Part shown: positions 10,457-57,018 of the stretch, in pieces | Layout: each line of letters starts with the position of its first letter | Position numbering within the stretch: position 1 is the first letter of the stretch | Assembly: GCF_028868675.1 (NCBI RefSeq) | Contig: NZ_JAGWUA010000002.1 | Coordinates: 600 to 64,599, forward strand | From: Bradyrhizobium sp. | Lineage (GTDB): Bacteria > Pseudomonadota > Alphaproteobacteria > Rhizobiales > Xanthobacteraceae | DNA: 64,000 bases | Direction of reading: 5' to 3' | Made by a program: the position numbers and the translations under genes | Notes under the pieces: generated by a model | What the model was told of the DNA's origin: nothing | What the model saw: only the letters and a program-made list of their open reading frames with translations | The model's database searches: none

Positions 10457-10467
10457 TCATCGGACGC
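10457..10467 (+). repeat. Left copy of 11-bp direct repeat TCATCGGACGC
   Basis: Identical to 57008-57018. Confidence 0.7.
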
Positions 10468-10543
10468 GCAGCGTTTGATCCGCGTCAATGCCGCTTTCTC
10501 CCGGCTCCGCCAGCCTTCTCCATCATTGCGGCGGAGCGAGGCG

Positions 10544-10960
10544 ATGCGCGCGGCTGGCTTGATGGCAGCACCGGTCCTGTGTGCGATGCTTTCTTCGGCG
10601 GAAGCCGAGAGCAGATGGCTGGAAAGCGGACGGCTGCACGTCTCGGAAGTCGGATCCCTCTGCGATCAGGTCCAGGACATTCGGCTGCTGGCGCGCATGC
10701 AGATGATCTCGTCCGGCAACGATCGCTGGCGCCGGCTGTCGCGACAGGAATTCGTCGTAGAGGGCGTTGCGATGGGCGTGCCTCCGCTCGATCCCGGCCG
10801 ATGTTACGTCATTGCGCGCGCCGGTCCCGTCGATCAGAACGAGCGGCGCGCCTTTGAGGTTCGAGATTTCGCCGTCAGCCCGGACAGGACGTCGGTCTTC
10901 GTCGTTGGCAGCGCCCATGACGCCTCCCCCATCCTGGAGCAGCCCTCTAGTCGGCGTTGA
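10544..10960 (+). CDS. Hypothetical, probably secreted, two-Cys protein
   Basis: GGAG RBS before ATG 10544; signal-like MRAAGLMAAPVLCAMLSSAEA; no family recognised. Confidence 0.55.
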   Translation: MRAAGLMAAPVLCAMLSSAEAESRWLESGRLHVSEVGSLCDQVQDIRLLARMQMISSGNDRWRRLSRQEFVVEGVAMGVPPLDPGRCYVIARAGPVDQNERRAFEVRDFAVSPDRTSVFVVGSAHDASPILEQPSSRR

Positions 10961-10981
10961 CCCCGGCCCGGCTGGCCCCAT

Positions 10982-11023
10982 CGTCCCCGCATTCGGATCG
11001 AATCCGCGCCTGGATCGGGGACG
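10982..11023. terminator. Stem-loop between convergent genes
   Basis: CGTCCCCG...CGGGGACG. Confidence 0.35.
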
Positions 11024-11034
11024 CGAAACGCGAT

Positions 11035-11901
11035 TCAGTTGGACAAGGACCGAAGCCACGCAAGTCGCGCGATCGCGCGCTCGGCAAGCGCCTGCAAGGC
11101 TTCCAGACGTGCGGGATCGTGGGATGCCTCCGCGCCCTCGAGATACGCGTCCGCCAGCGCCTCCGCGATGGTCTGGGCATCGCGCCGTTCGAGGTCAGCC
11201 GGAAGCCGGCCCACTCCTCTCGCTTCGAGCGACATCGACCGTGCCTGCTCTGCGAGTTCCTGGATCCTGGCGGCCCGCACAGGGTCGAGCCCAAGTTCCA
11301 ATTGTTGAAGCTGGCCAGCCAATCGGTGCTCCAATTTGGCCGCGTCGATTGGCTCCGCTTTCCCGGTGGCCGGGCGTGAGGCATCGTGTTCCCGATGATA
11401 GGCGCGCCGGCGGGCCTTGCGCAAAGTCGCGACATGGCCGAGTTCCTCGCTGGCCATCGTCTCCGCGGCGGTCTTGATTTCGGTATCCTCGGCGAATGCC
11501 GCGAGGTACGACCAGAATGCAAAGGCGCGCTCCTCGTTGCGGACGGCCATCGCAAGCGCGCGATATGGCGTCATCAACTTCGAGCCCATGATTTCGGTCG
11601 TCGCATCGCTGTCGAAAGTCTTGGGCGCCTCCCAGCGGACCAACGTGGAATCCGGCGTCTTGCCGCGGCGCGACTGCGACCACTTCGTCACGCTATCGAC
11701 ATGTTCGCGCTCGGCGGCCGCAAGGTCGCTGAAGACCTCGACCAGATCGGCGCGATCCTGGTGTCGCATTGCTTCCGCCAGTTCCGCGTACTTGCCGGCT
11801 GCCTCCTGTTCCATGGCATTTGCGAGCGCGAACAGCTCATCCAGGGACCGCAGGGTTCCGGCGGGTTCTGTTCCCAGAAGAGCGGTTCGCAGCAGCGGCA
11901 T
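11035..11901 (-). CDS. Ferritin-like/rubrerythrin-family diiron protein with a C-terminal helical extension
   Basis: AMEQEA...AEREH and RNEERA...EELGH paired E/ExxH motifs. Confidence 0.82.
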   Translation of the reverse strand: MPLLRTALLGTEPAGTLRSLDELFALANAMEQEAAGKYAELAEAMRHQDRADLVEVFSDLAAAEREHVDSVTKWSQSRRGKTPDSTLVRWEAPKTFDSDATTEIMGSKLMTPYRALAMAVRNEERAFAFWSYLAAFAEDTEIKTAAETMASEELGHVATLRKARRRAYHREHDASRPATGKAEPIDAAKLEHRLAGQLQQLELGLDPVRAARIQELAEQARSMSLEARGVGRLPADLERRDAQTIAEALADAYLEGAEASHDPARLEALQALAERAIARLAWLRSLSN

Positions 11902-11970
11902 AGCCGATCCGTCCTTCGCTGTTTGCTGCAACGCGGAGGTATATCGTGGAGCGATACTAACAAGGTCGCC

Positions 11971-11984
11971 TTGACGGAAGTCAA
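11971..11984. promoter_or_regulatory. FNR/FixK2-type box between the divergent rubrerythrin-like gene and nosR
   Basis: TTGAC-GGAA-GTCAA with perfect inverted arms; matches TTGA-N6-TCAA. Confidence 0.8.
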
Positions 11985-12101
11985 TCCGCTTGCTCAATGG
12001 GCCAGCCAACCGGCGTCAGCGGCGATTCCGGACATTAGACATTCAAGATTGGGTGGAATACCTGTCCGTCTTGGGGCGGGCCGTTCCACTTGTGGTGCTC
12101 C

Positions 12102-14423
12102 ATGGCCCGGAGTTTCTTCGTGACGTCCAAACGACGCCAAGGCAGCTTCCTGCTCGCCCTGGTCCTTGTGATCTGCTCAGCGCTGTGGTCCCAGGCCGCA
12201 TGCGCGGCCGGCGACCTCGCCAACTACCTCGCCAAGGCCTCGCCTGCCGACTTTTTCCCCGGCGCCGATCGCTTCGGACCCCTGCAGGGCGATCCGCCCG
12301 TCGTTCCCGTCTATCGCGGCGATCAGCTCCAGGGCTTCGTCTACCTCAATTCCGATTTCGCCAACGCGGTCGGCTACTCCGGCAAGCCGATCCACATCCT
12401 CGTCGGCATCGACCCCAAGGGGATCGTTACCGCCGTGAAGCTGATCGACCACAAGGAGCCGATCGTCCTCGTCGGCATTCCCGAGGCGCGGATCGTCGCG
12501 GCCGTCAATGGCCTGATCGGCAAGGACATGAAGCCGGTGGCGCGCGGCACCGAGCCGCCGCCGCAGGTGGACATCGTCAGCGGCGCGACTGTCACCGTGC
12601 TGGTCATGAGCGACAGCATCGTGCGCTCCGCCTCGAAGCTGATCCGCAGCGGCCGCATCGGCGGCGGAGACGCTGTCGCCGCTGCCTCCGCGCTGCCGCC
12701 GGTGACGAAGACGGTCGATCTCGAGCACAGTGAAGTTCGCGACTGGACGAGCCTCGTCGGCGACGGCTCGGTGCGCCGCCTGCACTTGAGCATCGGCGAC
12801 GTCGACGACGCCTTCGCAAAGTCCGGCAGCGCTGCTGCCGCCCGGAATTCCGAGCCGGGCGAGGCTTCCGACACCTTCATCGACCTCTACGTCGCTCTCG
12901 CCAGCGTGCCGACCATCGGCCGCAGCCTGCTCGGCGACGAAGCCTATGAAAGGCTGAAGGGACGGTTGCAGCCGGGGCAGCAGGCAATTGTGGTGGCGGG
13001 CAACGGCGCCTACTCCTTCAAAGGCTCGGCCTACGTGCGCGGCGGCATCTTCGACCGCATCGAAGTGCTGCAGGAAGGATCCAGCACCCGTTTCCGGGAC
13101 CGCAACCACACCCGTCTCGGCGGGCTCGCCGCGGCCGGCGCGCCGGAGTTCAAGGAGATCGGCCTGTTCGTCACGCCGCCCGAATTCACGCTCGACCCTA
13201 CCGAACCGTGGCAACTGAAGCTGCTGGTCCAGCGAGCCACCGTCGGACGCGACAAGGCGTTCCTCACATTCGACATCAACTACGACCTGCCCGAACGCTA
13301 CGTCCGCCGTGAGCAGCGTGCCGTCACCGTGCCGGCCGGCGCTCCCTCGCCCGCGACGCAGACTGCGGCTACGGCCCAACCGGCGGAACACGCGGCCGAC
13401 GACGAAGAGCCGCTGTGGGTCCGGATGTGGCGTTCGCAAGCCGTCTCGATCGCGATCACGGCGGTCGCGCTGGCGATGCTCACCGTCATCTTCTTCTTTC
13501 AGAACTTCCTGGTCCGGCGACCGGTCTTCTACACCTGGGTTCGCCGCCTCTACCTCGTCTTCGTGCTGGTCTGGCTCGGCTGGTACGCCAATGCGCAGCT
13601 CTCCGTGGTCAACGTGGTGACTTTCGCCAACGCGCTGGTGACCGGTTTCCACTGGGAGTTCTTCCTGGCCGCGCCCCTGATCTTCATTCTGTGGGCGGCG
13701 ACCGCCGGCGGACTCCTGTTCTGGGGCCGCGGACCGTTCTGCGGCTGGCTGTGTCCCTTCGGCGCGTTGCAGGAACTCAGCAACACGGTCGCCAAGTGGC
13801 TCAAGGTGCCTCAGATCACGGTGCCCTGGGGGCTGCACGAGCGGCTGTGGCCCATCAAGTACATCATCTTCCTGGGTCTGTTCGGGTTGTCGCTCTATTC
13901 CGTCGACCTCGCGGAGCGTTTTGCCGAGGTCGAGCCGTTCAAGACCGCGATCATCCTGAAATTCGCGCGAAGCTGGCCGTTTGCGCTCTATGCCGTGGCG
14001 CTGCTCGTCATCGGTCTGTTCATCGAGCGGTTCTTCTGCCGCTACCTTTGTCCGCTCGGTGCGGCGCTCGCCATCCCCGGGCGAATGCGGACCTTCGAGT
14101 GGCTGCGCCGCTGGCAGGAATGTGGGTCGCCCTGTCAGCGCTGCGCCAAGGAATGCCCGGTGCAGTCGATCCATCCCGAGGGTCACATCAACGTGAACGA
14201 GTGCATCTACTGCATGCACTGCCAGGAGCTTTATTACGACGACCATCGCTGCCCGCATATGATCCAGGTGAGGCTCAAGCGCGAGAAGTTCGCGGCGATG
14301 TCGTCACCATCGATGCGCGGCGGCGGAGCAGGCCCGAAGACCATCATCACGCACGCGGGCCAGCCCTTGCCCCTGACTGCCGCGGCGTCCCCGGAACACT
14401 CACCAAGCCGCTCGGAAACCTGA
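12102..14423 (+). CDS. nosR: NosR flavo-iron-sulfur membrane protein
   Basis: FMN-attachment motif DIVSGATVT; [20 protein letters not shown]; C-terminal CxxxCxxCxxxC and CxxCxxC ferredoxin motifs. Confidence 0.97.
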
Positions 14424-14434
14424 AGGAGATGAAC

Positions 14435-16369
14435 ATGGATCGCGAGGAAGACAAGAACACGATCAGCCGCCGCCAGGTGGTTGGGACCGCCGCGGTCGGC
14501 GCGGCGGGCCTGGCGGGTGGGCTCGGTCTCGGCAAGGCCGTTGCGCCCGAGCAGGCGGCCGCGCAGGGAAGTCCCGCGGCCCGCGCCGGGACCCAGAAGA
14601 TCGAGGTCGCGCCGGGCGAGCTGGACGAATACTACGTGTTCTTCTCGAGCGGCCAGACCGGCGAAATCCGCATCATCGGCATGCCGTCGATGCGCGAGCT
14701 GATGCGTATTCCCGTCTTCAACCGCGACAGCGCCACCGGCTGGGGACTGACCAACGAGTCGCTCAAGATCCTGACCGAAGGCCTCACCCAGGAGACGCGC
14801 GACCGGCTCAAGGGTCGGATGAACGGGGTCTGGCAGAACGGCGACTGCCATCATCCGCACATGTCGTTCACCGACGGCACCTATGACGGGCGCTACATCT
14901 TCATCAACGACAAGGCCAACACGCGTCTCGCCCGCATCCGCACCGACGTCATGAAGTGCGACAAGATCATCGAGTTGCCGAACCAGTACACCATTCACGG
15001 CATGCGCCCGCAGAAATATCCACGCACGGGCTACGTCTTCTGCAACGGCGAATACGAGGTGCCGCTTCCGAACGACGGCAAGGTGCTGGACGACAAGACC
15101 AAGTATTGGTCGATGTTCTCGGCCGTCGACGGCGACACCATGAAGATTGCCTGGCAGGTGATCGTCGACGGCAATCTCGACAACACCGACGCCGACTACC
15201 AGGGCAAGTATGCATTCTCGACCTGTTATAATTCCGAGAAGGGCGTCACTCTCGCGGAGATGACCGCGAGCGAAACCGACTGGATCGTGATCTTCAACCT
15301 CAAGCGCATCGAGGACGCCGTCAAGAAGGGCGATTTCAAGGAGATGAACGGCGTGCCGGTGATCGACGGGCGCAAGGGGTCTGCCTACACTCGCTACGTT
15401 CCGATCCCCAACAGTCCGCACGGGATCAACACCGCGCCGGATGGCATCCATGTCGTGGCCAACGGCAAGCTGTCGCCGACGGTCTCCGTCTTCGACGTCC
15501 GCAAGTTCGACGATCTGTTCGATGACAAGATCAAGCCGCGCGATACGGTCGTCGCAGAGCCGGAGCTGGGATTGGGTCCGCTGCACACCGCCTTCGACGG
15601 TAAAGGCAACGCCTACACCACGCTGTTTCTCGACAGTCAGGTCTGCAAGTGGAACATCGAACAAGCCAAGCGCGCATTCAAGGGTGAGAAGGTCAACCCG
15701 ATCATCCAGAAGCTCGACGTCCACTACCAGCCGGGCCACAACCACTCCTCGATGGGCGAGACCAGGGAGGCCGACGGGAAATGGCTGATCTCGCTCAACA
15801 AGTTCTCCAAGGACCGCTTCATCAACGTCGGTCCGCTCAAGCCGGAGAACGACCAGCTGATCGACATCTCGGGCGATCAGATGAAGCTGGTACACGATGG
15901 CCCGAGCTTCGCCGAGCCGCATGACGCGGTCATCGTGCACCGCTCCAAGCTGGAGGGAAAGGTCATCAGCATCTGGAAGCGCGACGACCCATACTTCGCG
16001 GATGCGGTCAAGCAGGCCAAGGCCGACGGGGTCACGCTCGAGAGCGACGCCAAGGTGATCCGGGACGGCAACAAGGTGCGCGTCTACATGTACTCGGCCG
16101 CGCCCGCCTACGCGCTCGACAAGTTCGATGTCAAGCAGGGCGACGAGGTGACGGTCTACGTCACCAACATCGACGACGTCGAGGACCTGACCCACGGCTT
16201 CTGCATCGTCAACTACGGCATCAACATGGAGATCGGTCCGCAGCAGACCTCGTCGGTCACCTTCGTCGCCGACAAGCCCGGCGTCTACTGGTACTTCTGC
16301 ACATGGTTCTGCCACGCCATGCACATGGAAATGCGCGGGCGCATGCTGGTGTCGCCGCGGAACGCGTGA
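14435..16369 (+). CDS. nosZ: Nitrous oxide reductase, clade I (Tat)
   Basis: AAGGAG RBS; Tat SRRQVVG; CuZ His motifs GDCHHPH, IHG, PHG, PLH, GHNH, EPHD; CuA THGF and [12 protein letters not shown]. Confidence 0.98.
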
Positions 16370-16371
16370 CG

Positions 16372-17757
16372 ATGCGGTGCGCGCGTCACCTGGCGCTCTG
16401 GACGCTGGCGGCTCTCGCAGCCGCGGGTCTCGGTGCGCGCGCAGCCTCGGCGGAAAAGCATTTCGTCACGCCGGAGGCCGGCGACGTCCAACGAATTCTG
16501 GACGCCGCCGCCGACGGCGACGAAATTTGGCTGGCCGCGGGGACCTACCGAGGCCCGCTCCACATTGCGCATCGGCTTGTCCTCTCCGGAGCCGCCGGCG
16601 CGGTCGTCGCCGGTTCGGGGAAAGGCAGCGTCATCACGATTTCGGCGCCGGGTGCGGTCGTGCGCGGGCTGGAGGTGCGCGGCTCGGGGCGGTCGCTTGA
16701 AACCATGGACTCGGGAATTTTCGTCGAGCAGTCGGCGCGTGGCGCCGTCGTGGAGGACAACCGTCTCGAGGACAACCTCTTCGGGATGTACTTTCACGGA
16801 GCGCCTGACGCGGTGGCGCGCCACAACGTCGTCGTCGGACTGCGCCAGGCGCGCAACAGCGAGACCGGCAACGGAATCACGGTCTGGAACGCCCCGGGTG
16901 CCAAGGTGCTGGATAACGATTTCAGGTACGGGCGGGACGGCATCTTCGCGATCACCAGCCGCAACAACGTGGTGAAAGGCAATCGCTTCAGCGACCTGCG
17001 ATTCGCGGTCCACTACATGTACACCAACGACAGCGAGATCGTCGGGAACGTCTCGAAGAGCAATCTCATCGGCTACGCGCTGATGTTCTCCAGGAAGCTC
17101 GTGGTACGGGACAATGTCTCCGACCACGACCGCGATCGTGGCATTCTCTTCAACGCGTCCAATTACGATGAAATTTCCGGCAACACCGTGATTGGCGGAT
17201 TGCAGTCCGCCGAGCGTTGGGCGACGTCGGACAACCGCGCCGCGGACGAAGGCGTGCCCCAGGCGGAAACGACTTCGTCGGCGCCCATTCGAGACCAGCG
17301 GATCGGTCCCGAGAAGTGTGCCTTCATTTACAACACCAACAAGAATCGGATCGAACGCAACTGGTTCGAGGGCTGCGAGATCGGCGTACACTTCACCGCC
17401 GGCTCCGAGGGGAACGACATCACCGGCAACGCTTTCGTCAACAACGCCGCCCAGGTGAAATACGTCGGCACCCGCCATCTCGACTGGTCGAAGAACGGCC
17501 GCGGCAACTACTGGAGCGACAATCCGGCGTTCGACCTCAACGGCGATGGTGTCGCCGACACGGCCTACCGGCCGAACGGCCTCATCGACCGCGTGCTGTG
17601 GACGGCGCCTGCCGCGAAGCTCCTGATCAACAGCCCCGCCGTCCAGGTGATCCGCTGGGCCCAGGCCCAGTTTCCGGCGCTGCTTCCCGGCGGCGTGGTT
17701 GACAGCCATCCGCTGATGTCGCCGCCGAAGCGCCAGGCGGCCGAGGTAGTGCGATGA
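16372..17757 (+). CDS. nosD: NosD (clade I operon)
   Basis: CASH/beta-helix repeats, RDGIF, VHYMY, GNYWSDN, DGVADTAYRPN. Confidence 0.95.
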   Translation: MRCARHLALWTLAALAAAGLGARAASAEKHFVTPEAGDVQRILDAAADGDEIWLAAGTYRGPLHIAHRLVLSGAAGAVVAGSGKGSVITISAPGAVVRGLEVRGSGRSLETMDSGIFVEQSARGAVVEDNRLEDNLFGMYFHGAPDAVARHNVVVGLRQARNSETGNGITVWNAPGAKVLDNDFRYGRDGIFAITSRNNVVKGNRFSDLRFAVHYMYTNDSEIVGNVSKSNLIGYALMFSRKLVVRDNVSDHDRDRGILFNASNYDEISGNTVIGGLQSAERWATSDNRAADEGVPQAETTSSAPIRDQRIGPEKCAFIYNTNKNRIERNWFEGCEIGVHFTAGSEGNDITGNAFVNNAAQVKYVGTRHLDWSKNGRGNYWSDNPAFDLNGDGVADTAYRPNGLIDRVLWTAPAAKLLINSPAVQVIRWAQAQFPALLPGGVVDSHPLMSPPKRQAAEVVR

Positions 17758-18674
17758 CCGGCACGGTGCGTGTCACCGACGTCACCAAGGAGTACGGCCA
17801 GGTCAAGGCCGTCCGCGGCGCCTCGTTCGAGTTGGGGCAGGGCGAACTGGTGGCCTTGATCGGCCACAACGGCGCCGGCAAGACGACATTGATGAAGCTG
17901 ATGCTCGGGCTCATCCGTCCGACCGGCGGATCGATCGAGGTGCTCGGCGACAATCCGGCCGCCGGAGAGTTTTCGGGGAGACGGCGGCTCGGCTATCTGC
18001 CGGAGAACGTCTCGTTCGACGCAGCCCTGACCGGCCGCGAAACACAGGCGTTCTACGCCAGGCTGAAGCGGGAGCCGATCGCGAAAGCGCTGGAACTGCT
18101 CGACACGGTCGGGCTCGGCGTCGCCGCCGGGCGCCGCGTCGGCACCTATTCGAAGGGCATGCGACAGCGGCTTGGCCTCGCCCAGGCGCTGATCGGGCAT
18201 CCCAAGGTGCTGCTGCTGGACGAGCCGACCACGGGCCTCGACCCGGAGCTGCGGCAAACCTTCTACGAGATCATCGCGCGGCTCGCGGCCCAGGGCGCGA
18301 CGGTGCTGCTCTCCTCGCATTCCCTCACCGAGCTCGAGGAGCGCGCGGGGCGCGTGATCATCATGAACCGCGGCGTCAAGGTCGCCGACGGCTCGATCGA
18401 ACGGCTGCGCAACATCGCGCAGCTGCCGACCAGGATTCGGCTGAAGGTCGCCGGGCTCTCGCCCGCCGAATTGCCGCCGTGGCTGCCGAGCGGTGCGACC
18501 TGCAGACGGCTCAATGGCCACATCGTCGAGATCGATGCTGCGCCGGACCGGAAGATCGAGCTTCTGCACTGCGCAACGGCCGCGGGCAATTCCGTGGAAG
18601 ACGTCGATGTGGTCCAGCCGACTCTCGATGAGCTCTACGTCCACTTCCTCGGGCAGGCCGAGGTGACGTCATGA
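17754..18674 (+). CDS. nosF: NosF ABC ATPase
   Basis: GHNGAGKTT, YSKGMRQR, DEPTTGLD. Confidence 0.95.
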   Translation: MTGTVRVTDVTKEYGQVKAVRGASFELGQGELVALIGHNGAGKTTLMKLMLGLIRPTGGSIEVLGDNPAAGEFSGRRRLGYLPENVSFDAALTGRETQAFYARLKREPIAKALELLDTVGLGVAAGRRVGTYSKGMRQRLGLAQALIGHPKVLLLDEPTTGLDPELRQTFYEIIARLAAQGATVLLSSHSLTELEERAGRVIIMNRGVKVADGSIERLRNIAQLPTRIRLKVAGLSPAELPPWLPSGATCRRLNGHIVEIDAAPDRKIELLHCATAAGNSVEDVDVVQPTLDELYVHFLGQAEVTS

Positions 18675-20028: not shown

Positions 20029-20037
20029 GAGAAGGCC

Positions 20038-46634: not shown

Positions 46635-46668
46635 GCGCAGGACCCGAGAGACACGGAGAACGACGACG

Positions 46669-47415: not shown

Positions 47416-47521
47416 GTCCCGGCGTTTCGGCCCAGGAATAGGATTGCGGAATTGGATTGCGGTCCGTCCCGTCGGCAGCACGGCCGACGGGCGGGGCTAT
47501 CGCAATGCGGGAGATCTGTTC

Positions 47522-48742: not shown

Positions 48743-48746
48743 GGCA

Positions 48747-50168
48747 ATGCCGGCGCTGCCGCGACTGCCGGGCTGGGCGAAGGGCGGCGCCCTCGTCCTC
48801 TCGGGGCTCGCGGTCGCCGCGCTCGTGGCCGTCGGCTTCGGCAAGATCGCCGTCACCTTCGGCGTCTATGACCTCACGCGCGACGCCGGCTTCGCCGACC
48901 ATCATCCGCCGCCGCCGGATCCGCGCTCGGAAGCCGAGTTGGAGAGCCTGCGCCGCTTCCCGCGAGGTGCGACGGCGCTTCAGCCGCTGATCGACGCCAC
49001 CCCGACGGGTGGCGTGCTGCACCTTGCGCCCGGCATCTACGCGGCTCCCGGCATCGTCGGCCGGCCGCTGCGCATCGAGGGTGAGCCGGGCGCCGTCATC
49101 GACGGCGGCGGGGTCGGCTCGATCATGACCGTGGCCGCGGACGACGTGCAGGTCATCGGGCTGACCTTCCGCAATTCCGGCGAGCGGCATGAATCGACCG
49201 ACTCCGCCCTGCGCCTGCGGGGCAAGCACGGGATCTTCCGCGACAACGTCATCGAGGACTGCCTATTCGGCTTCGAGCTGAAGCAGTCGGACATGAACAT
49301 CATCCGGCGCAACCGCATTTCGTCGAAGGATCTGCCCGAGGCGTTGCGCGGCGACGCCGTCCGCGTCTGGTACTCCAACGGCAACCGGATCGAGGACAAC
49401 GACATCGTCCGCACGCGCGACACGGTCGTCTGGTATTCGAAGGAGAACACCATCGACGGCAACCGGATCCGCGACAGCCGGTACGGCGTGCACCTGATGT
49501 ATGCGCATCAGAACAACCTGCGACGCAACGTTCTCGTGGCGAACACCGTGGGCGTATTCCTGATGTACGCCAACGACAACGTGCTGGCCGACAACGTCAT
49601 CCATTACAGCCAGGGGCCGTCGGGCATCGGAATCGGCTTCAAGGAATCCTCCGGCGCCCGCATCGAGCACAACGACGTGTTCGCCAATGCGCGCGGCCTG
49701 TTCATGGATGCCTCTCCCTACGACCCCGACTCGCCCAATCTCTTCGCCGCCAACCGTTTTGCCTACAACGGCGTCGCCATCGCCTTCCACTCCGGCTGGG
49801 AGGGCAATACCTTCAAGGACAACGCCTTCCTCGGCAATCACGCCCAGGCCATGGTCGCCGGCGGCGGCTCGGCGCAGCGCAACGTCTGGGCCGGGAACTT
49901 CTGGGATTCCTACGACGGATTTGATCGAAATCACGATGGCGTCGGCGATACGCCCTACCGTATCTGGACCTGGGCCGACCGACTGTGGATGGACGTGCCC
50001 GATGCGCAGTTCTTCCGTGCCGCGCCGTCGCTCGAGATGATCGATCTCGTCGAGCGCCTCGGTTCGCTCATGGAGCCGCGCCTCGTGCTGTCGGATCCCC
50101 TGCCGCGCGTCGGCGCGGTCGCCGCGGCGGGGCCACGTGGCGTGGCCGTGAGAGAGGTCTTGCAATGA
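48747..50168 (+). CDS. nosD: NosD (clade II cluster)
   Basis: RGDAVRVWYS, RYGVHLMY, GNFWDSYDGFDRNHDGVGDTPY. Confidence 0.93.
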   Translation: MPALPRLPGWAKGGALVLSGLAVAALVAVGFGKIAVTFGVYDLTRDAGFADHHPPPPDPRSEAELESLRRFPRGATALQPLIDATPTGGVLHLAPGIYAAPGIVGRPLRIEGEPGAVIDGGGVGSIMTVAADDVQVIGLTFRNSGERHESTDSALRLRGKHGIFRDNVIEDCLFGFELKQSDMNIIRRNRISSKDLPEALRGDAVRVWYSNGNRIEDNDIVRTRDTVVWYSKENTIDGNRIRDSRYGVHLMYAHQNNLRRNVLVANTVGVFLMYANDNVLADNVIHYSQGPSGIGIGFKESSGARIEHNDVFANARGLFMDASPYDPDSPNLFAANRFAYNGVAIAFHSGWEGNTFKDNAFLGNHAQAMVAGGGSAQRNVWAGNFWDSYDGFDRNHDGVGDTPYRIWTWADRLWMDVPDAQFFRAAPSLEMIDLVERLGSLMEPRLVLSDPLPRVGAVAAAGPRGVAVREVLQ

Positions 50169-50953
50169 AGGACGGTGAATTCGACGCTCCCGCTCCGCCG
50201 GCGAAGGCTGCGTCGCGGGTCGACGAGGAGCGTCGGCGCATGTTGCGCTCGGCCGCGGTCGGCGGCGCCGTGGCCTGCGCGGCCCTGCTGGGCCTGCTCG
50301 ACCATCGCGTGGCGCGGGCCGCGCCGCGGCTTCGGCCGCCCGGAGCGCTCGACGAGGAGGATTTTCTCGCCGCCTGCATCAAGTGCGGACAATGCGTGCA
50401 GGTCTGCCCGGTCGACGCAATCCGGCTCGGCGACCTGAACGAGGGGCTGGCCAACGGCGTTCCGCACATCGTGGCCCGGCACCAGGCCTGCGACTTCTCC
50501 TGCGACGCCACGCAATGCGTCCTGGCGTGCCCGACCGGTGCGCTGAGCCACCTGATCGACCGCAAGGAGCAGACGCGAATGGGCGTGGCGCGCCTCGCCG
50601 CGCCGGACGCCTGCCTCGCGCGCAAGGGCGCGGGCTTCAAGGGCGCCACGCGCGGCGCTGATTTCAAGGGACGTCTGCGTTATGCCGAGATCGACCGGTG
50701 GAAGCCGCAGCCGGTCGCCGATCATCCCTATGATCTCGAGCTTTGCGATCTCTGTGTCCGGCAGTGTCCGATCGAGAACGCAATCGCGCTGGCGCCCATG
50801 TCGGACGATCCGAAGGACCATCGCCGCACCCCGGTGGTGAAGGACGCCTGCGTCGGTTGCGGCGTCTGTGAGATGGTCTGCCCCGTCGAGCCGGCGGCGA
50901 TCCGCATCGAGGTCCGCATCACCGGTCGCGATCCCGGAGGACCCAGCGCATGA
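50165..50953 (+). CDS. nosG: NosG (NapG/MauM-like Fe-S protein)
   Basis: Tat-like RRRML; LRPPGA, CIKCGQCVQVCP, CDLCVRQCP, CVGCGVCEMVCP. Confidence 0.9.
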   Translation: MKDGEFDAPAPPAKAASRVDEERRRMLRSAAVGGAVACAALLGLLDHRVARAAPRLRPPGALDEEDFLAACIKCGQCVQVCPVDAIRLGDLNEGLANGVPHIVARHQACDFSCDATQCVLACPTGALSHLIDRKEQTRMGVARLAAPDACLARKGAGFKGATRGADFKGRLRYAEIDRWKPQPVADHPYDLELCDLCVRQCPIENAIALAPMSDDPKDHRRTPVVKDACVGCGVCEMVCPVEPAAIRIEVRITGRDPGGPSA

Positions 50954-51972
50954 GCAACAGACTGATCGCGCGCAAGCTGCGGGATCTGGCGCTGATGTTC
51001 GGCGCCGCCCCGAAGAAGCCCACTCCGGAGGACATGACCGAAGACGCGCGCGACATGCTCGCCTTCAAGAAGAGCCCCGAGCAGCGCAAGTGGCGCAAGG
51101 CCGCGATCGCGAGCGAGCGCGCCGAGGCGGCGGTGTCGCACAAGTGGCGCTGGATTCGCTGGGCGACGATCTTCGGCTTCAACGGCCTGTTCGTGGCCTC
51201 GTACTGGCTGGACCTGCAGCTCTTCGAAGGAGCGCTGACGGCCTCCCGCGTGCTGGGCTTCCACCTCGCCGACCTCAATTCGTCGCTGCAGCTCATGCTC
51301 GCGCACAAGCACGTCGTGGTCAATCTCGTGATCGGCGTGACGACGGTCTGGCTGATCTACGCGGTGATCGGCGGCCGGAATTTCTGCTCATGGGTCTGCC
51401 CGTACCACTTCCTGGCCGAGCTCGCGGAGATGGTGCATCTGAAGCTCGCGGCGAAGAAGCTGGTGCGCGACCACGAGCTCGATCGGCGGCTGCGTGTCGT
51501 CATGTTCTTCGTGTTCGCCGTGCTCGCCTTCGTCTCCGGCTATCCGCTGTTCGAGGCGATCTCGCCCGTCGGCATCCTGTCACGCGCGCTCACCTACGGC
51601 ACCGTGATCAGCCTGATCTGGGTGGCGCTGCTGCTGCTTGCCGAAATCGTCTGGTCGCGGCGGCTGTGGTGCCGCTACATCTGCCCCGTCGGGCTCGGCT
51701 ATGGCCTCGCCGGCGTCGCGGCGCCGGTACGGATCATGTACGACGCGGACAAGTGCCTGCACGAGGGCAAATGCCGGCAGGTCTGTCTCGTTCCCCACGT
51801 CCTCGACATGACCAAGCTCGGTTTTGCGCGCGATGTCGAGACCCCGGTCGGTGCCGATTGCACGCGTTGCGCGATGTGCATCGACGTCTGTCCGACCGGT
51901 GCGCTCACCTTCGACATTCTCGGCCTGGCGCGCTCCGGCGTCGAGGACACGCCCGAGGACGTCGGGTCATGA
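50950..51972 (+). CDS. nosH: NosH (NapH-like membrane Fe-S quinol dehydrogenase subunit)
   Basis: FCSWVCP, WCRYICP, CLHEGKCRQVC, CTRCAMCIDVCP. Confidence 0.9.
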   Translation: MSNRLIARKLRDLALMFGAAPKKPTPEDMTEDARDMLAFKKSPEQRKWRKAAIASERAEAAVSHKWRWIRWATIFGFNGLFVASYWLDLQLFEGALTASRVLGFHLADLNSSLQLMLAHKHVVVNLVIGVTTVWLIYAVIGGRNFCSWVCPYHFLAELAEMVHLKLAAKKLVRDHELDRRLRVVMFFVFAVLAFVSGYPLFEAISPVGILSRALTYGTVISLIWVALLLLAEIVWSRRLWCRYICPVGLGYGLAGVAAPVRIMYDADKCLHEGKCRQVCLVPHVLDMTKLGFARDVETPVGADCTRCAMCIDVCPTGALTFDILGLARSGVEDTPEDVGS

Positions 51973-52853
51973 TTCTCGTCGACGGGCTGACCAAGAGGTT
52001 CGGCGCCACGCGCGTGCTCGACGGTCTGTCGATCGAGGCGCCTTCGGGTCAGCGCATTGCGCTGGTCGGCTCGAACGGCGCCGGCAAGACCAGCCTGTTC
52101 CGCTGTCTGCTCGGGGAATACGCCTGTCAGGGATCGATTTCCGTCGATGGACTGGATCCGCGCCGCGACCGCGCGCGGCTGCTGCGAACCATCGGATTCG
52201 TGCCGCAGATCGCGCCGCGGCTGGAAACGCCCGTCGGGGCCTTCATCCGCTATGTGGCCGAAGTGTCGGGCGCCTCGGTCGACGAGATCGAAGCGGTCGC
52301 GACCAGCCTCGGTCTCGACGTCGCCGCCGTGCGCAAGCGCGCCTTCGTGCGGTTGTCCGGCGGCATGAAGCAGAAGCTGATGATCGCGCTGGCGCTCGGC
52401 CGGCCGACCAGGCTCCTGATCCTCGACGAGCCGACCGCGAACCTCGATCCGGCAGCGCGCGCGGGCCTGTACGATCTGCTGGCGGCGCGCGGCCGGCACA
52501 CGGCCATGATCATCTCGAGCCACCGCATCGACGAGATCGCGCCTCTGGTGGACCGGGTCGTGGAACTCGACCGCGGACGCATCGTGCTCGACGATACCGT
52601 GAGCGACGCCGGTGCATTGGGATCGACTTTCTTCGCGCAGATCGAAACCGGCCGCCCCGAGGAAAGCTTTGCGCGCGCGGCGCGCGAATGGGGTCTGGCG
52701 CAGGTCGAGGAGCGGCGCTGGCGCGGCACGATCGCCGGGCCCGACAGGCTGCGGTTCCTCGGCTTCGTGGCGCGCCATGCCGGGCGGCTTGCCGGCGTCG
52801 AGTTGCGCGAGGCTCATCGGGAGAACGGCAATGCCGATACGCATTCCGCCTGA
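51969..52853 (+). CDS. nosF: NosF ABC ATPase (clade II)
   Basis: GSNGAGKTS, LSGGMKQK, DEPTANLD. Confidence 0.9.
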   Translation: MILVDGLTKRFGATRVLDGLSIEAPSGQRIALVGSNGAGKTSLFRCLLGEYACQGSISVDGLDPRRDRARLLRTIGFVPQIAPRLETPVGAFIRYVAEVSGASVDEIEAVATSLGLDVAAVRKRAFVRLSGGMKQKLMIALALGRPTRLLILDEPTANLDPAARAGLYDLLAARGRHTAMIISSHRIDEIAPLVDRVVELDRGRIVLDDTVSDAGALGSTFFAQIETGRPEESFARAAREWGLAQVEERRWRGTIAGPDRLRFLGFVARHAGRLAGVELREAHRENGNADTHSA

Positions 52854-53316
52854 GACGCGCCCTGGTGCGACGCGCCGCCGCTTCGTCTGCATGGGGCTCG
52901 GCCTCGCCGTTGCCGGCGGCCTTGCCGGCTGCTCGGAGGCCCGGCCGGCGCCGCGGGCCGTGCGGCTGAAGCGCGAGAGCTGCGACCATTGCGGCATGCC
53001 GATCGGCGATACTCGCTTTGCCAGCGAGATCTGGAATGCCGAATACGGACGGGTGCGGGTCTACGACGATTTCGGCTGCGCGGTGCTCGCCGCGTCCGCG
53101 CGCAAGGAGCTCGACCGGGCCGAAATCGCCTTCTGGGTCGCCGACGAGAGCGACCCTTCGCGCTGGCTCGACGCGCGCACGGCGCATTACCGCAGCGGCG
53201 TCGCCACGCCGATGGGGCACGGCTATGCGGCCGGACCCGAGCGCGATCATCCCGTCGACTACGTGACCGCCTACACCGCCATCTGCGCCAAGGCGCTCTG
53301 CGCCGGTGCGACCTGA
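52831..53316 (+). CDS. nosL: NosL copper chaperone (clade II type)
   Basis: RRRF leader with lipobox LAGC; CDHCGM, DDFGCA, TPMGHG. Confidence 0.88.
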   Translation: MPIRIPPETRPGATRRRFVCMGLGLAVAGGLAGCSEARPAPRAVRLKRESCDHCGMPIGDTRFASEIWNAEYGRVRVYDDFGCAVLAASARKELDRAEIAFWVADESDPSRWLDARTAHYRSGVATPMGHGYAAGPERDHPVDYVTAYTAICAKALCAGAT

Positions 53317-53323
53317 GGTGACC

Positions 53324-54202
53324 ATGCTGCTCGCTTCGCCCGACATCGCGCGCGATCTGCAAGACTCCGGCCTCGGATCCGGATTGGCGGCGACGTTCCG
53401 CCTCGAGGTTTCGCAGGCGCTGCGCGCCCGCTGGTTCTGGGCTTATGCCGCGGTGTTCTTCGGTCTTGTCGGCCTGCTCTTGGTGTTCGGCCTGACGGAG
53501 TCGCGCGTGCTCGGCTTCACCGGCCTGTCGCGCACGCTGGTGGCCTATATCCAGCTCTCGATGGCGATCCTGCCGATCTTCGTGCTCATCACCACGGTGC
53601 GGTCGCTGGCCGGGGACCGGGAAGCCGGCGTGTACGAATACGTGCTCGGACTGCCGGTCGGGATCGGCGGCTGGTACGCCGGCCGCTTCTTCGCGCGCTA
53701 CGCGCTCGCGGTCGCGCCGGTGCTCGGCGCGCTCGTCTCGGCGGTCGCCTACGGCGCGGCGCGCGGCGTCGCCATTCCCTGGGTGGAACTCGGCTTCGAC
53801 ATCGGACTTCTGCTCGCCATGATCCTCGCCTTCGTCGGACTGGGCTTCTTCATCGCGTCGGTGGCGAGTTCGGTGGATCTGGCCCAGACGGCGGCCTTCC
53901 TGTTGTGGCTCGTGCTGATCCTCGGGCTCGATCTCGTTCTGCTCGGCGTCCTGATCCGCGATCGCATGCCGGTCGAGGGCGTCGTCGCCATTGCACTGCT
54001 CAATCCGTTGCAAGTGTTCCGGATCGGGTCCATGGTCCTATTCGATCCGCAGCTCGTCCTCCTGGGCTCGACGGCCTATGCCGTCTTCGACGTCTTCGGC
54101 CGGGTCGGCTTCATGGTCTGGTCGCTCGCTTACCCCCTCGCGCTCGGAATCGGCGCAGCCTATGCGGGTTTCCTGGTATTCCGACGTGGAGATCTCCTGT
54201 GA
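53324..54202 (+). CDS. nosY: NosY ABC permease (clade II)
   Basis: DREAGVYEY, LLNPLQVFR; multi-TM; follows nosF-nosL. Confidence 0.88.
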   Translation: MLLASPDIARDLQDSGLGSGLAATFRLEVSQALRARWFWAYAAVFFGLVGLLLVFGLTESRVLGFTGLSRTLVAYIQLSMAILPIFVLITTVRSLAGDREAGVYEYVLGLPVGIGGWYAGRFFARYALAVAPVLGALVSAVAYGAARGVAIPWVELGFDIGLLLAMILAFVGLGFFIASVASSVDLAQTAAFLLWLVLILGLDLVLLGVLIRDRMPVEGVVAIALLNPLQVFRIGSMVLFDPQLVLLGSTAYAVFDVFGRVGFMVWSLAYPLALGIGAAYAGFLVFRRGDLL

Positions 54203-55104
54203 CGACCTTGGCATCGACCGGTTCGATCGGAACGTGGGTCTTGGGCGCGCGGCCGCGAACGCTCGCGCTGTCCGTCACTCCGGTGGCGGTGGGACTGGCC
54301 TATGCCGCCGCCATGTATGGAGCAATCGACCCGATACCGATCATCGCTGCGCTGGCATCCGCGATCTTCATCCAGATCACGACCAATCTCGCCAACGATT
54401 CGGCGGATGGCGGCCGCGGCGCCGACAAGTCGGAGCGGCTGGGACCGGTGCGGCTCGTCGGCGCCGGGATCATGTCGGCCCCGCAGGTCCGGCGCGGCGC
54501 CATCGTGACCAGTCTCGTCGCGGTGGCCTTCGGCGCCGTGGCGGTCGCCTACGGCGGCGCACCGATCCTGGCGATCGGCCTGGCGTCGCTGCTGGCGGCC
54601 TGGGGCTATTCCTACGGGCCCTGGCCGATCAGTGCCAGCCGCTTCGGTGAGGTGTTCGTCATCCTGTTCTTCGGCGTCGTGGCCACGACCGGCATCGTCT
54701 GGCTCGGCGTGCATCGCGTCGATGCGACCTCGGCGCTGCTCGGCATCGCGACCGGTCTGCCGGCCGCCGCCGTTCTGACCGTCAACAACCACCGCGACCG
54801 CGTTCAGGACGCCGCCTCGGGCCGCCGGACGCTGGCGATGTATCTCGGACCGCGCGGTACGCCGTTCCTCTACGCCGTCGAGCTCGCGGCGGCGGCCGCG
54901 ATCGCAGGCGTCGCGCTCTGGCCGATCAATCGCGCCGGTGCCGTCATTGCCGTGGCGGCGTTCGGATTTGCGCTCTATCTCGGCCATCAGCTCGCCCGCG
55001 CGCCGATCTCGCGCGCGCTGAACGCGATGCTGTCCGCGACGGTGCATTTCCAGGTCGGGCTCGCGGCCGCCATCGTCGCCGTCCTCGTGATGAGCGCCCG
55101 ATGA
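54199..55104 (+). CDS. menA: 1,4-dihydroxy-2-naphthoate polyprenyltransferase (UbiA family)
   Basis: W..GARPRTL, NLANDSAD, G.D...RLGPVR, NNHRDRVQD..GRRTL; GTG overlaps the nosY stop. Confidence 0.88.
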   Translation: MTTLASTGSIGTWVLGARPRTLALSVTPVAVGLAYAAAMYGAIDPIPIIAALASAIFIQITTNLANDSADGGRGADKSERLGPVRLVGAGIMSAPQVRRGAIVTSLVAVAFGAVAVAYGGAPILAIGLASLLAAWGYSYGPWPISASRFGEVFVILFFGVVATTGIVWLGVHRVDATSALLGIATGLPAAAVLTVNNHRDRVQDAASGRRTLAMYLGPRGTPFLYAVELAAAAAIAGVALWPINRAGAVIAVAAFGFALYLGHQLARAPISRALNAMLSATVHFQVGLAAAIVAVLVMSAR

Positions 55105-55604
55105 TCCGCTTCGCCGCAGCGCTCATCGCCGCGGCGGCGTGGACGTCCGCGCTTGCGGCCGACTTCGTGCCGTCGGCGCCGAGGCCGATCGAATTCGTCG
55201 TGCGCGACCGCAACGGCGATGCGCGTACGGCACCGCAGTTGCGCGCGCGCCTGACGGTGCTGCATTTCTGGGCGAGCTGGTGCCTGCCGTGCCGCGACGA
55301 GCTGCCGGCCCTGCAGTCGCTGCAATCCGACCTCGCGGGAGACGGCGTGCGCGTGGTCGCGGTGTCGGTCGACCGGTTGGGCTGGGACGCGATCGACCGC
55401 ACGACGGTAAAGCTGGATGTGCGCGGGCTCGAACTCTATCACGACCGCGACCGCGAGGCGACCGCTGCCCTCGGCGTCGAGGCGCTGCCGACGACGATCC
55501 TCGTCGATGCAGAGGGCCGCGAGGTCGCGCGCATGCGCGGGCAGGGCGAGTGGGGCAATCCCGACGTCCGGCGCGATCTCCTGCGCTTTCGCGATGCGCC
55601 CTGA
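55101..55604 (+). CDS. TlpA/ResA-like thioredoxin
   Basis: Signal peptide, HFWASWCLPCRDELP, LPTTILVD. Confidence 0.9.
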   Translation: MIRFAAALIAAAAWTSALAADFVPSAPRPIEFVVRDRNGDARTAPQLRARLTVLHFWASWCLPCRDELPALQSLQSDLAGDGVRVVAVSVDRLGWDAIDRTTVKLDVRGLELYHDRDREATAALGVEALPTTILVDAEGREVARMRGQGEWGNPDVRRDLLRFRDAP

Positions 55605-55607
55605 GGC

Positions 55608-56345
55608 TCAGGCGGCCGGCTTTCGCGCCGAGTGAACGGCGGCGATGCCGAACGAATAGTCCCGCCATTCTACGTCCACCAGCCCGCTCGATGCGATCAT
55701 GGATGCGAACTCCGCCTGATCGGGAAAGCGCCGGATCGACTCGACGAGATAGCGATAGGCGTCGCGGCGCCTGGAGACGATGGCGCCGAGCAATGGGATC
55801 GCGGTGCGCGACCACAGGCCGTAGAACGGTCGCAGCCAGGCCTGCGGCGTCGAGAATTCCAGGCAGAACAGACGCCCGCCGGGCTTCAAGACCCGTGCGA
55901 TCTCGGCGAGCGCGTCGTCGACGCGCGTCGCATTGCGGATGCCGAACGAGATGGTGATGAGGTCGATGGACGCATCGGGGAAGGGGAGGCGCTCCGCCTC
56001 CGCGGCGATCCACCGAAGGCCGTCGGCGCCGGGCCGTCCTCGCCCGGCGCGCATCATCTCCGGCGAGGGATCGACGACCAGCGTGCGGGCGCCGGCGGAC
56101 GCGAGTGCCAGCGCGATGTCGCCGGTGCCGCCGGCGAGATCCACCGCGATCTCGCCCGGCCGCGCCGCCGCGAGGGCGACAAAGGCGGACTTCCAGAGCC
56201 GGTGAATCCCCATGCTCATGAGGTCGTTCATCACATCGTAGCGCGGCGCCACCTGCGCGAAGGTGCGCCGGATGAGCTGCTGGCGCTGGTCGACCGAGAC
56301 CGTGGCCGCGCCAAAGCTGCGCGCAAGCTTGTCGCCGGCGCTCAT
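55608..56345 (-). CDS. ubiE: UbiE/MenG quinone C-methyltransferase paralog
   Basis: VAPRYDVMNDLMSMGIHRLWK, DLAGGTGD, SFGIRN, VLKPGG..CLEFS, YLVESIRRFPDQ. Confidence 0.9.
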   Translation of the reverse strand: MSAGDKLARSFGAATVSVDQRQQLIRRTFAQVAPRYDVMNDLMSMGIHRLWKSAFVALAAARPGEIAVDLAGGTGDIALALASAGARTLVVDPSPEMMRAGRGRPGADGLRWIAAEAERLPFPDASIDLITISFGIRNATRVDDALAEIARVLKPGGRLFCLEFSTPQAWLRPFYGLWSRTAIPLLGAIVSRRRDAYRYLVESIRRFPDQAEFASMIASSGLVDVEWRDYSFGIAAVHSARKPAA

Positions 56346-56346
56346 G

Positions 56347-56901
56347 TCATCTCGCCAGCATGGAGGCGCGGATGCGTTCCGCGAGCGCGCCGCCGTCGAG
56401 GTCGTGCGGATAGCGTCCGACGATCGCGCCGGAGGGATCGGCAAGAAATATCGCCGCGGTGTGGTCGACCGAATAGGAATTCTTGTCCTTGAGCTCGACC
56501 CGGGCGTATTTGACCCGCCACTGGGCCGCCAGAGTCGCAAGCTGATCCGGGTGAGGCGACAGGCCGACCATGCGCGGGTGGAAGTAGCCGACGTATTCGG
56601 CGACGACGCCGGGCGTGTCGCGTTCGGGATCGACGGTCACGAACACCGGCGTGATGCGCTCGCCGACAGGGCCGAGCACATCGAGCGCCTGGCCCATGCT
56701 CTGCAGCGAGATCGGGCAGATGTCGGGGCAGTTCGTGTAGCCGAAATAGACGAGCTTCCAGCCGGCAATGTCGCCGGCTGCGATCTCGCGCCCATCCTGC
56801 CGCACGCCGAACAGCTCGGCGGCCTGCGCGGGACACGACGGCGCGGCCAGCAGGCAAAGCACCGCGGCCAGGACGGCGAACAGCCGGCGAGACACGCGCA
56901 C
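56347..56901 (-). CDS. Sco/SenC copper chaperone
   Basis: YFGYTNCPDICP, TVDPERDT, VDHTA; GTG start with GGAGG RBS. Confidence 0.92.
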   Translation of the reverse strand: MRVSRRLFAVLAAVLCLLAAPSCPAQAAELFGVRQDGREIAAGDIAGWKLVYFGYTNCPDICPISLQSMGQALDVLGPVGERITPVFVTVDPERDTPGVVAEYVGYFHPRMVGLSPHPDQLATLAAQWRVKYARVELKDKNSYSVDHTAAIFLADPSGAIVGRYPHDLDGGALAERIRASMLAR

Positions 56902-56986
56902 ACGATCTGCCTCCGGTGCCAGGGCAGGGGAGCAATGCGGAACCATGATCATGGCGGCATAGGAGCCCACAAGCGCCATTGCCGCC

Positions 56987-57000
56987 TTGATGCGAGTCAA
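56987..57000. promoter_or_regulatory. FNR/FixK2-type box upstream of sco-ubiE
   Basis: TTGAT-GCGA-GTCAA, about 86 nt upstream of the sco start. Confidence 0.8.
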
Positions 57001-57007
57001 TGGACCG

Positions 57008-57018
57008 TCATCGGACGC
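57008..57018 (+). repeat. Right copy of 11-bp direct repeat TCATCGGACGC
   Basis: Identical to 10457-10467; 18 nt from the boxR stop. Confidence 0.7.

Follow-up and report, generated by a model that had tools for sequence, protein, structure and literature searches.

The DNA analysed here is a 64,000-nucleotide stretch of contig NZ_JAGWUA010000002.1 from a Bradyrhizobium sp. assembly (hereafter the window). Between 11.0 and 57.0 kb it carries a clade I nitrous oxide (N2O) reductase (nos) gene cluster, then a sulfur module with a dissimilatory sulfite reductase (Dsr) operon, then a clade II nos cluster. This block probably consists of three respiratory modules, each self-contained and evolving on its own, which have come to lie side by side in this lineage only, in a variable region of the chromosome. 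An earlier note on the same DNA had proposed a new sulfide-to-N2O system. The gene content and the physical linkage that it described were borne out. The proposal of a new dedicated respiratory system is weakly supported, since related genomes keep the three modules apart (linkage in 0/80, 0/80 and 0/6 of the loci compared for dsrA, nosZ-I and nosZ-II, respectively) and the nos and dsr promoters carry separate motifs. The adjacency is real and is most likely an accident of accretion, at most a young co-selection, and not a conserved dedicated system.

As the window has a G+C content of 61–70%, genes were chosen by third-position G+C; they were named using Pfam and NCBIfam. The modules span 11.0–21.5 kb (clade I nos), 22.65–42.7 kb (sulfur) and 43.56–57.0 kb (clade II nos). 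Every gene class that had been placed in the block by the earlier note (SQR, TusA/DsrE2, a full Dsr operon and both nos clusters) was found close to the position proposed for it. No nar, nap, nir, nor, sox, sat, apr or soe gene was detected by Pfam/NCBIfam scans across the 64 kb, as had also been claimed; this applies to the window only and not to the rest of the genome. The gene-content observation is thus confirmed in every item.

Conservation of the modules and of their linkage

Each module was compared with its own relatives. The dsrA set consisted of the 80 closest species representatives in GTDB (DsrA 71–92% identical), with loci ending near dsrP. The nosZ-I set consisted of the 80 closest metagenomic loci (75–92% identity) and the nosZ-II set of six distinct genomic contexts of close relatives (83–92% identity). 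The junction between dsr and nosZ-II was compared from the nosZ-II side only, in these six contexts.

The 80 dsrA holders were nearly all Alphaproteobacteria, many of them Hyphomicrobiales. They shared the same dsr gene order, mostly with a divergent TauD-like gene, and the nearest of them also carried ArsR–TusA–DsrE2–SQR. No nos gene was found within 10 kb upstream of dsrA in any of the 80 loci. The best match was a Bradyrhizobium metagenome-assembled genome (MAG; locus L048, DsrA 92% identical), which is homologous to the window from position 22,648 onwards, immediately to the left of the ArsR-type regulator; in L001 and L006 homology likewise begins at about 22650. The left side of L048 (1–5370) contains soxB/soxC/soxD-like genes, a DsrE-like gene and a YeeE/YedE sulfur transporter gene, with no nos gene, which is the arrangement of a purely sulfur island.

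The 80 nosZ-I loci kept rbr/nosRZDFYLX, often with a cytochrome c gene, and none of them had an NMO, ArsR, TusA, DsrE2 or SQR gene downstream. In the closest named relative (Bradyrhizobium sp., NosZ-I 90% identical), the cluster is located between hemN/fixG-like genes and an amino-acid ABC transporter.

The nearest NosZ-II proteins (83–95% identity) were from Rhodoblastus, Methylobacteriaceae, Pinisolibacter, Azospirillum, Rhodobacterales and MAGs. All six contexts kept the 13-kb module in full, with its MenA-like and TlpA-like genes and with the UbiE-like gene in the loci long enough to include it. The upstream neighbours varied (opp with a multihaem cytochrome, kdp, napFDAGHBC, an aldose epimerase and an unrelated LysR), and dsr was upstream of nosZ-II in none of the six, even at 90–92% identity. 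Adjacency of YeiH and nosZ-II was seen only on contigs encoding an identical NosZ-II, i.e. in the same population. LysR was considered as a conserved partner of nosZ-II and rejected: the LysR beside nosZ-II in locus L185 is unrelated to that of the window.

Each of the three modules is therefore conserved as its own unit, and their adjacency is restricted to this lineage. The earlier note had named independent acquisition, with the modules never co-located elsewhere, as an outcome that would count against its proposal; in the data reached, this is largely what was found.

Regulatory motifs and transcription

Cysteines occur at positions 42 and 108 of the ArsR-type regulator encoded on the left of the sulfur module, as read from the sequence alone. 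This Cys42/Cys108 pattern, together with an ATTC-N8-GAAT operator, is what we take to characterize the persulfide sensors BigR and SqrR. Two exact matches to ATTC-N8-GAAT were found in the window. One is a palindrome at 27095–27110, in the tauD–dsrA promoter region, and is a predicted SqrR-type operator; the other is inside dsrN. The motif was present in the tauD–dsrA spacer of 8/60 relatives, versus about 0.4 expected. A SqrR-type operator at the nos promoters was discarded, as neither of the two exact matches in the window lies there.

A FixK/FNR-type box (TTGACGGAAGTCAA) was found at 11971–11984 in the rbr–nosR spacer, and 38 of 51 related loci have a similar box no more than 300 bp upstream of nosR. 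The FixK2-type pattern TTGM-N6-KCAA has five matches in the window versus 2.5 expected. Four of the five are in the 7.6% of the DNA that is non-coding, a post-hoc figure that makes the placement suggestive: at 10475 (after the tRNA), 11971 (rbr–nosR), 43058 (500 bp upstream of nosZ-II) and 56987 (upstream of sco1). The nosZ-II box was recovered in two distinct relatives, which supports it weakly. The strict pattern TTGAT-N4-ATCAA gave four matches versus 0.8 expected; this number was equalled in 4 of 100 shuffles and was judged not above chance. Common FNR/FixK control of all three modules was rejected, as the promoters of dsr and sqr have no box.

Neither motif type is thus common to the sulfur and nos promoters, which suggests separate control of nos and dsr. 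These are sequence motif matches, and a response to low oxygen for nos and to sulfide or persulfide for dsr would fit them.

In a soil metatranscriptome, short fragments 95–99% identical to sqr, dsrAB and dsrC (window 23340–31340) and to nosZ-I were detected; they may come from relatives. Contig depth was 74–440 for the sqr, dsrAB and dsrC fragments and 13–14 for those of nosZ-I. This kind of reverse Dsr (rDsr) appears to be transcribed in soil.

Host and chromosomal position of the block

The host had first been described as Bradyrhizobium-like, and the data agree. YidC is 88% identical to the proteins of B. manausense, B. liaoningense and B. guangdongense, NosZ-I is 85–90% identical to named Bradyrhizobium proteins, and the left flank of the block is syntenic with B. 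manausense CP077970 at 84% nucleotide identity. The alignment with B. manausense stops at window position 10447, three bases past the 3′ end of tRNA-Arg(ACG) (10368–10444, + strand; ARAGORN), which forms the left edge of the lineage-specific region. Past this tRNA, B. manausense has unrelated genes, and all three modules are absent there. The region behaves like a variable island because the modules are absent at the B. manausense tRNA and a typical nos cluster is found in an unusual place.

No integrase or transposase domain was found in any open reading frame (ORF) scanned in the window. A second copy of the tRNA-Arg 3′ end was absent from the window, beyond which the far border may lie, and no clear GC or skew step was seen at the module borders. 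When 72,556 plasmids were searched by tblastn, NosZ-II gave at most 53% identity and DsrA gave no match. A classical integrative element was accordingly rejected for lack of integrase, transposase and tRNA-end repeat in the window, and a plasmid origin on the results of the plasmid search. As in tRNA-linked genomic islands, synteny is lost right at the 3′ end of a tRNA gene, and the DNA inserted there encodes accessory metabolic functions; unlike them, the window has no integrase, direct repeat, clear compositional shift or defined right end. For these reasons we speak of a variable region adjacent to a tRNA gene and avoid the label ‘mobile element’.

Proposed electron routes

Sulfide would be oxidized by SQR to polysulfide or persulfide, with two electrons per sulfide entering the quinone pool. 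TusA, DsrE2 and DsrEFH would then relay sulfane sulfur to DsrC, and DsrAB would convert it to sulfite, while DsrMKJOP and DsrL would pass electrons to the quinone or NAD pool. Persulfide would derepress the sulfur module via the SqrR-like repressor. Electrons would reach NosZ-I through bc1 and cytochrome c, and its expression would be turned on by a low-oxygen regulator of the FixK/FNR type. NosZ-II would be fed by its own NapGH-like quinol dehydrogenase and its own cytochromes c, and would be served by its own copper/thiol maturation helpers.

In this scheme the modules would meet only in the quinone and cytochrome c pools that they share, and no sequence feature points to a direct or exclusive link of Dsr with Nos. 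Electron flow from SQR and rDsr by way of the quinone pool to either NosZ makes biochemical sense. As the pools would be shared, coupling of sulfur oxidation to N2O reduction is expected if both sets are co-expressed, and reduced sulfur is a plausible donor, one among others, for N2O reduction in this organism. For the fate of sulfite, the only pointer in the window is a YeiH-family putative sulfate exporter, which gives a hint of export.

Alternative explanations

The block could instead be an island, co-selected and possibly transferable, that equips its host to respire N2O lithotrophically with sulfide or elemental sulfur as donor; SQR and rDsr would feed two N2O reductases of differing affinity. 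We consider this unlikely. Several observations favour it. The 46 kb contain every part required for the oxidation of sulfide to sulfite and for the reduction of N2O to N2, and no other respiratory genes intervene. The start of the block coincides exactly with a tRNA gene, B. manausense lacks the block, and the clade I nos cluster of the block is away from the usual Bradyrhizobium location. Because the block is absent from the B. manausense site and a typical nos cluster has been relocated, chance accretion is not the sole reading; the modules may also have been selected for linkage or transferred together. The junction segment at 20.0–27.2 kb was near-identical in metagenome runs of nine or more studies, which sampled soil, wastewater, sediment, wetland and sludge, habitats where sulfide and N2O meet. 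Soil or wastewater runs that contain the lineage include SRR36080961–63 and SRR32006844–46. Finally, the genera with the closest NosZ-II (Rhodoblastus, Methylobacteriaceae, Pinisolibacter aquiterrae and Azospirillum) recur among the closest DsrA holders, with the genes in separate loci, which hints at an ecological association of rDsr with this type of clade II nos. Against a co-selected island stand the absence of the linkage from all of the approximately 170 related loci, the absence of integrase, transposase, tRNA-end repeat and close plasmid relatives, the different motifs at the nos and dsr promoters, and the lack of a sulfite-oxidizing enzyme in the block. The sole RNA run found gives short fragments, which are unfit to show co-expression.

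An extended form of this idea is a young, co-selected and perhaps transferable island acting as a sulfur-fuelled two-enzyme N2O sink. The clade II module would bring a naphthoquinone branch (MenA-like and MenG-like proteins) through which low-potential electrons from DsrMKJOP would reach NosGH, bypassing ubiquinone and bc1. This form is quite unlikely.

It is improbable that the sulfur module stands beside nos mainly for protection, either by removing sulfide from the NosZ copper or by supplying persulfide for CuZ, with energy as a secondary benefit. Sulfide inhibits NosZ, and this inhibition is relieved by sulfide-oxidizing denitrifiers (PMC11782648). SQR, TusA and DsrE2 belong to families that handle persulfide sulfur, and a persulfide-sensor-like regulator is placed over the module. 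SQR alone would nevertheless be enough for detoxification, whereas a 13-gene rDsr with DsrMKJOP and DsrL is an energy-conserving pathway. Moreover, dozens of relatives have the same sulfur module with no nos gene near it, the nos modules of relatives work without a sulfur module, and no gene in the block resembles a dedicated sulfur donor for NosZ.

Assembly integrity

The juxtaposition of three modules depends on a correct assembly, and a misassembly had been named by the earlier note as an outcome that would overturn its proposal. Contigs of four metagenome runs from four studies were aligned to 8–28 kb and 39–59 kb of the window. They covered 10418–13960, 17505–24271, 40150–44319 and 45431–57370, and depth was flat within each run across flank and block (approximately 90, 40, 6 and 9). 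Two further Logan contigs came from other samples: L088 links nosL–nosX–cytochrome c–NMO–ArsR–TusA–DsrE2, and L086 links a partial ORF, LysR, YeiH and nosZ-II. The source contig, of 66,475 bp, is probably metagenomic and both nos clusters contain conserved stretches (e.g. 143 nt at 73% identity), but a chimera joining DNA of different organisms is practically excluded, because every junction is crossed by contigs of the four unrelated runs with flat depth within each, and the Logan contigs bridge both inner junctions with proteins 99–100% identical to those of the window.

Known parallels and significance

It is established that Thiobacillus, Sulfurimonas and others can drive N2O reduction with sulfur compounds. 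In heterotrophic denitrifiers, sulfide oxidation both protects NosZ and donates electrons (PMC11782648). Like Thiobacillus denitrificans, Sulfurimonas and these denitrifiers, the window combines SQR and Dsr (Dsr or Sox in the known cases) with NosZ in one cell, where sulfide could serve as donor and its removal could protect NosZ. The genes of the known sulfur-oxidizing denitrifiers have not been reported as one block; the window differs further in having no nitrate, nitrite or nitric oxide reductase genes, a Bradyrhizobium-like host and both nosZ clades. Genomes with both nosZ clades appear rare. Among 1,083 wastewater MAGs, genomes with two nosZ were found only within clade II, and the two copies were never 45 genes or fewer apart (PMC11409646). 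In the literature on Bradyrhizobium with rDsr, or with dsrAB and clade II nosZ, no description of the present arrangement was found; coverage was incomplete, so that this is weak evidence of novelty. The block combines known parts in a new way, in a genus of agricultural relevance, and does not represent a new type of system.

What is unusual is that a single Bradyrhizobium lineage, widespread in soil, sediment and wastewater, has rDsr together with nosZ of both clades. Bradyrhizobium strains bearing nosZ are explored as inoculants to cut N2O emission from soil. A lineage with both NosZ clades and a sulfide-to-sulfite pathway could reduce N2O where sulfide normally poisons NosZ, and could manage this in the absence of organic donors. 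Should the adjacency be accidental, the lineage would still be a good test case for whether two NosZ types have differing roles in one cell and for the role of the MenA/MenG/TlpA tail that is conserved in alphaproteobacterial clusters of clade II.

Clade I nos module

The module begins with a rubrerythrin/ferritin-like gene (11035–11901, − strand; Pfam Rubrerythrin), which is divergent from nosR and was counted in the module. This gene is absent from the textbook description of nosRZDFYLX; it is kept beside nosR in most of the 80 related clade I loci. It is followed by nosR (12090–14423, + strand), with FMN_bind and Fer4_5 domains (Pfam), and by nosZ (14429–16369, + strand), which encodes a NosZ of clade I dependent on the twin-arginine translocation (TAT) pathway (TIGR04244, 1140 bits versus a cut-off of 625). 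NosZ-I contains the twin-arginine (RR) motif SRRQVVG, DCHHPH and C-X3-C-X3-H-X2-M, with an intact CuA motif. Its best match is the Bradyrhizobium sp. protein at 90% identity. The genes nosD, nosF, nosY, nosL and nosX (ApbE family) occupy 16303–21033 (+ strand; Pfam NosD, ABC_tran, ABC2_membrane_2, NosL and ApbE). The module ends with a monohaem cytochrome c gene (21068–21460, + strand; Pfam Cytochrom_C, one CXXCH), which follows nosX in many related clade I loci as well. The assignment to clade I is based on a TAT-type NosZ with copper motifs and on NosR and NosX/ApbE alongside NosDFYL.

The clade I nosRZDFYLX cluster of Bradyrhizobium diazoefficiens/japonicum is controlled by FixK2. The window cluster resembles it in gene order, in its TAT-type NosZ and in the FixK-type box upstream of nosR. 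It differs from Bradyrhizobium clusters in having a sulfur module downstream, and from that of its nearest relative, described above, in its location directly after tRNA-Arg. The junction with the sulfur module is occupied by an NMO/FabK-like oxidoreductase gene (21481–22461, − strand; Pfam NMO); no NMO gene was present at this position in any of the related nos or dsr loci compared.

Sulfur module

The left end of the module is formed by the gene for an ArsR-family regulator of putative BigR/SqrR type (22696–23043, + strand; Pfam HTH_5, Cys42 and Cys108). Three genes on the − strand follow: tusA (23099–23326; Pfam TusA, CPxP motif), dsrE2 (23384–23890; Pfam DrsE_2) and sqr (23932–25197), encoding a type I sulfide:quinone oxidoreductase. 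SQR was assigned to type I by a full-length match to PDB 3SZ0, the Acidithiobacillus ferrooxidans SQR (474 bits, E 4.5e-141, residues 1–420). The next gene encodes a DsrC/TusE-like paralogue (25350–25658, + strand; Pfam DsrC), in which the first conserved cysteine is kept and the last is missing; it adjoins sqr in the window and in the nearest relatives (L001, L048 and L006–L011). Two small ORFs separate it from the gene for a TauD/TfdA-family dioxygenase (26101–27033, − strand; Pfam TauD), divergent from dsrA. This Fe(II)/2-oxoglutarate dioxygenase gene is the neighbour of dsrA in about 60 of the 80 alphaproteobacterial dsr loci, at 39–81% identity.

The operon dsrABEFHCMKLJOPN (27230–39428, + strand) was recognized by Pfam and NCBIfam. 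Both DsrA (dsrA at 27230–28540; TIGR02064, 580 bits) and DsrB (TIGR02066, 514 bits) scored above cut-off. DsrL is a DsrL-like NAD(P)-binding Fe-S flavoprotein (Pfam/NCBIfam), and DsrC has both C-terminal cysteines (C-terminus CKIAGLPKPTGCV). The operon thus has the gene set of a reverse Dsr, namely dsrAB, dsrEFH, dsrL and a two-cysteine dsrC. From this gene set, Dsr is predicted to be of the oxidative (reverse) type and would work in the direction of sulfite formation.

The operon is followed by a gene for an ApbC/Mrp Fe-S cluster carrier (39497–40618, + strand; NF008669, 330 bits, just under the curated cut-off of 348; Pfam ParA/NUBPL, 332 bits versus 27.1), and then by genes for a LysR regulator and the YeiH-family putative sulfate/anion exporter (40615–42683, − strand; Pfam LysR and Cons_hypoth698; TIGR00698, 153.8 bits, under the cut-off of 232.6). 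LysR and YeiH were assigned to the sulfur module because the pair is also beside dsr in locus L010, as is YeiH alone in L014 and L024. Neither dsrR nor dsrS was recognized in the window.

The oxidative Dsr operon of Allochromatium vinosum is dsrABEFHCMKLJOPNRS. The window shares with the rDsr loci of A. vinosum and Ruegeria the dsrABEFHCMKLJOPN order, the two-cysteine DsrC and the proximity of TusA/DsrE2. It adds a TauD-like dioxygenase, a SqrR-like regulator and SQR within the module, and it has no recognized dsrR/dsrS, soeABC or aprBA-sat. Unlike in the 80 relatives, the module is flanked by nos clusters. The occurrence of rDsr in non-phototrophic Alphaproteobacteria, e.g. Ruegeria, is documented (bioRxiv 10.1101/2024.06.14.599071).

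Clade II nos module

An 880-bp non-coding spacer (42684–43561) lies upstream of nosZ-II. ORFs in it have a third-position G+C (GC3) of 0.61–0.65, and it contains a FixK-like box at 43058–43071. Gene callers proposed a 208-aa ORF at 42934–43560 (+ strand). This ORF was rejected because its GC3 is 0.61, versus 0.8–0.9 in real genes, and it has no family match or relatives; it is probably not a gene. The spacer may be a site of a regulatory RNA or of promoter elements.

The product of nosZ-II (43562–45853, + strand) is a Sec-dependent NosZ of clade II (TIGR04246, 868 bits versus a cut-off of 625). Its N-terminus, MKSLLKMSVAAGALLCFGGTAAFA, is a signal peptide without an RR motif, and its CuA motif is intact. 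At its C-terminus the protein extends about 110 residues past the cupredoxin domain (window 45500–45853, residues ~650–763), with no CXXCH in this extension. Downstream are genes for two dihaem c-type cytochromes (NosC1/NosC2-like; 45978–47415, + strand; Pfam, two CXXCH in each) and for a NosB-like membrane protein (47600–48742, + strand) with about six hydrophobic segments. The latter has no Pfam or NCBIfam match and was named by position only; this position is conserved in all relatives compared. The genes nosD, nosG, nosH, nosF, nosL and nosY follow (48747–54202, + strand; Pfam/NCBIfam NosD, NapG/NapH family, ABC_tran and ABC2_membrane_2). For nosG and nosH, TIGR00397 scored 137 bits, below its cut-off of 178.85, and TIGR02163 scored 234 bits, above its cut-off of 213. 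The NosL-like lipoprotein carries a CDHCGM motif. The assignment to clade II is based on a Sec-exported NosZ and on NosG/NosH and c-type cytochromes in place of NosR/NosX.

The tail of the module consists of genes for a MenA-like prenyltransferase and a TlpA-like thioredoxin (54199–55604, + strand; TIGR00751, 139.8 bits versus a cut-off of 102; TlpA model, 92 bits, below cut-off), then for a UbiE/MenG-family methyltransferase and a SCO1/SenC copper chaperone (55608–57000, − strand; TIGR01934, 246 bits; Pfam SCO1-SenC). The MenA-like and TlpA-like genes close the clade II module in every relative examined (seven loci: L092, L094, L097, L098, L099, L102 and L185). The UbiE/MenG-like gene is next in the loci that reach far enough (L092, L099 and L102), and SCO1/SenC is next in the window. 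A naphthoquinone branch would be unexpected in a class that uses ubiquinone. TlpA and ScoI of B. diazoefficiens are known in CuA assembly and, by analogy, the TlpA-like and SCO1 proteins probably serve CuA assembly.

The clade II nos order of Wolinella succinogenes is of the nosZ-B-D-G-C1-C2-H-F-Y-L type, and the extension of its NosZ is a cytochrome c. The window module resembles it in its Sec-type NosZ, putative NosB-like protein, NapGH-like NosGH, two cytochromes c and NosDFYL, and in the absence of NosR/NosX. It differs in its order (Z-C-C-B-D-G-H-F-L-Y), in the lack of a haem motif in the NosZ extension, and in carrying the MenA-like, TlpA-like and UbiE-like genes, then SCO1.

Flanking genes

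The first 10 kb of the window, on the left of the block, contain housekeeping genes (dapE, dapD, argB, engB, yidC, a histidine kinase gene and tRNA-Arg(ACG)). The right flank (57037–64000) resembles a benzoyl-CoA oxidation (box) cluster. It encodes a regulator of the BoxR/BzdR type with helix-turn-helix and shikimate-kinase domains, an AMP-forming ligase, an alpha/beta hydrolase, a 562-aa protein of the enoyl-CoA hydratase family and a PaaA-like oxygenase.

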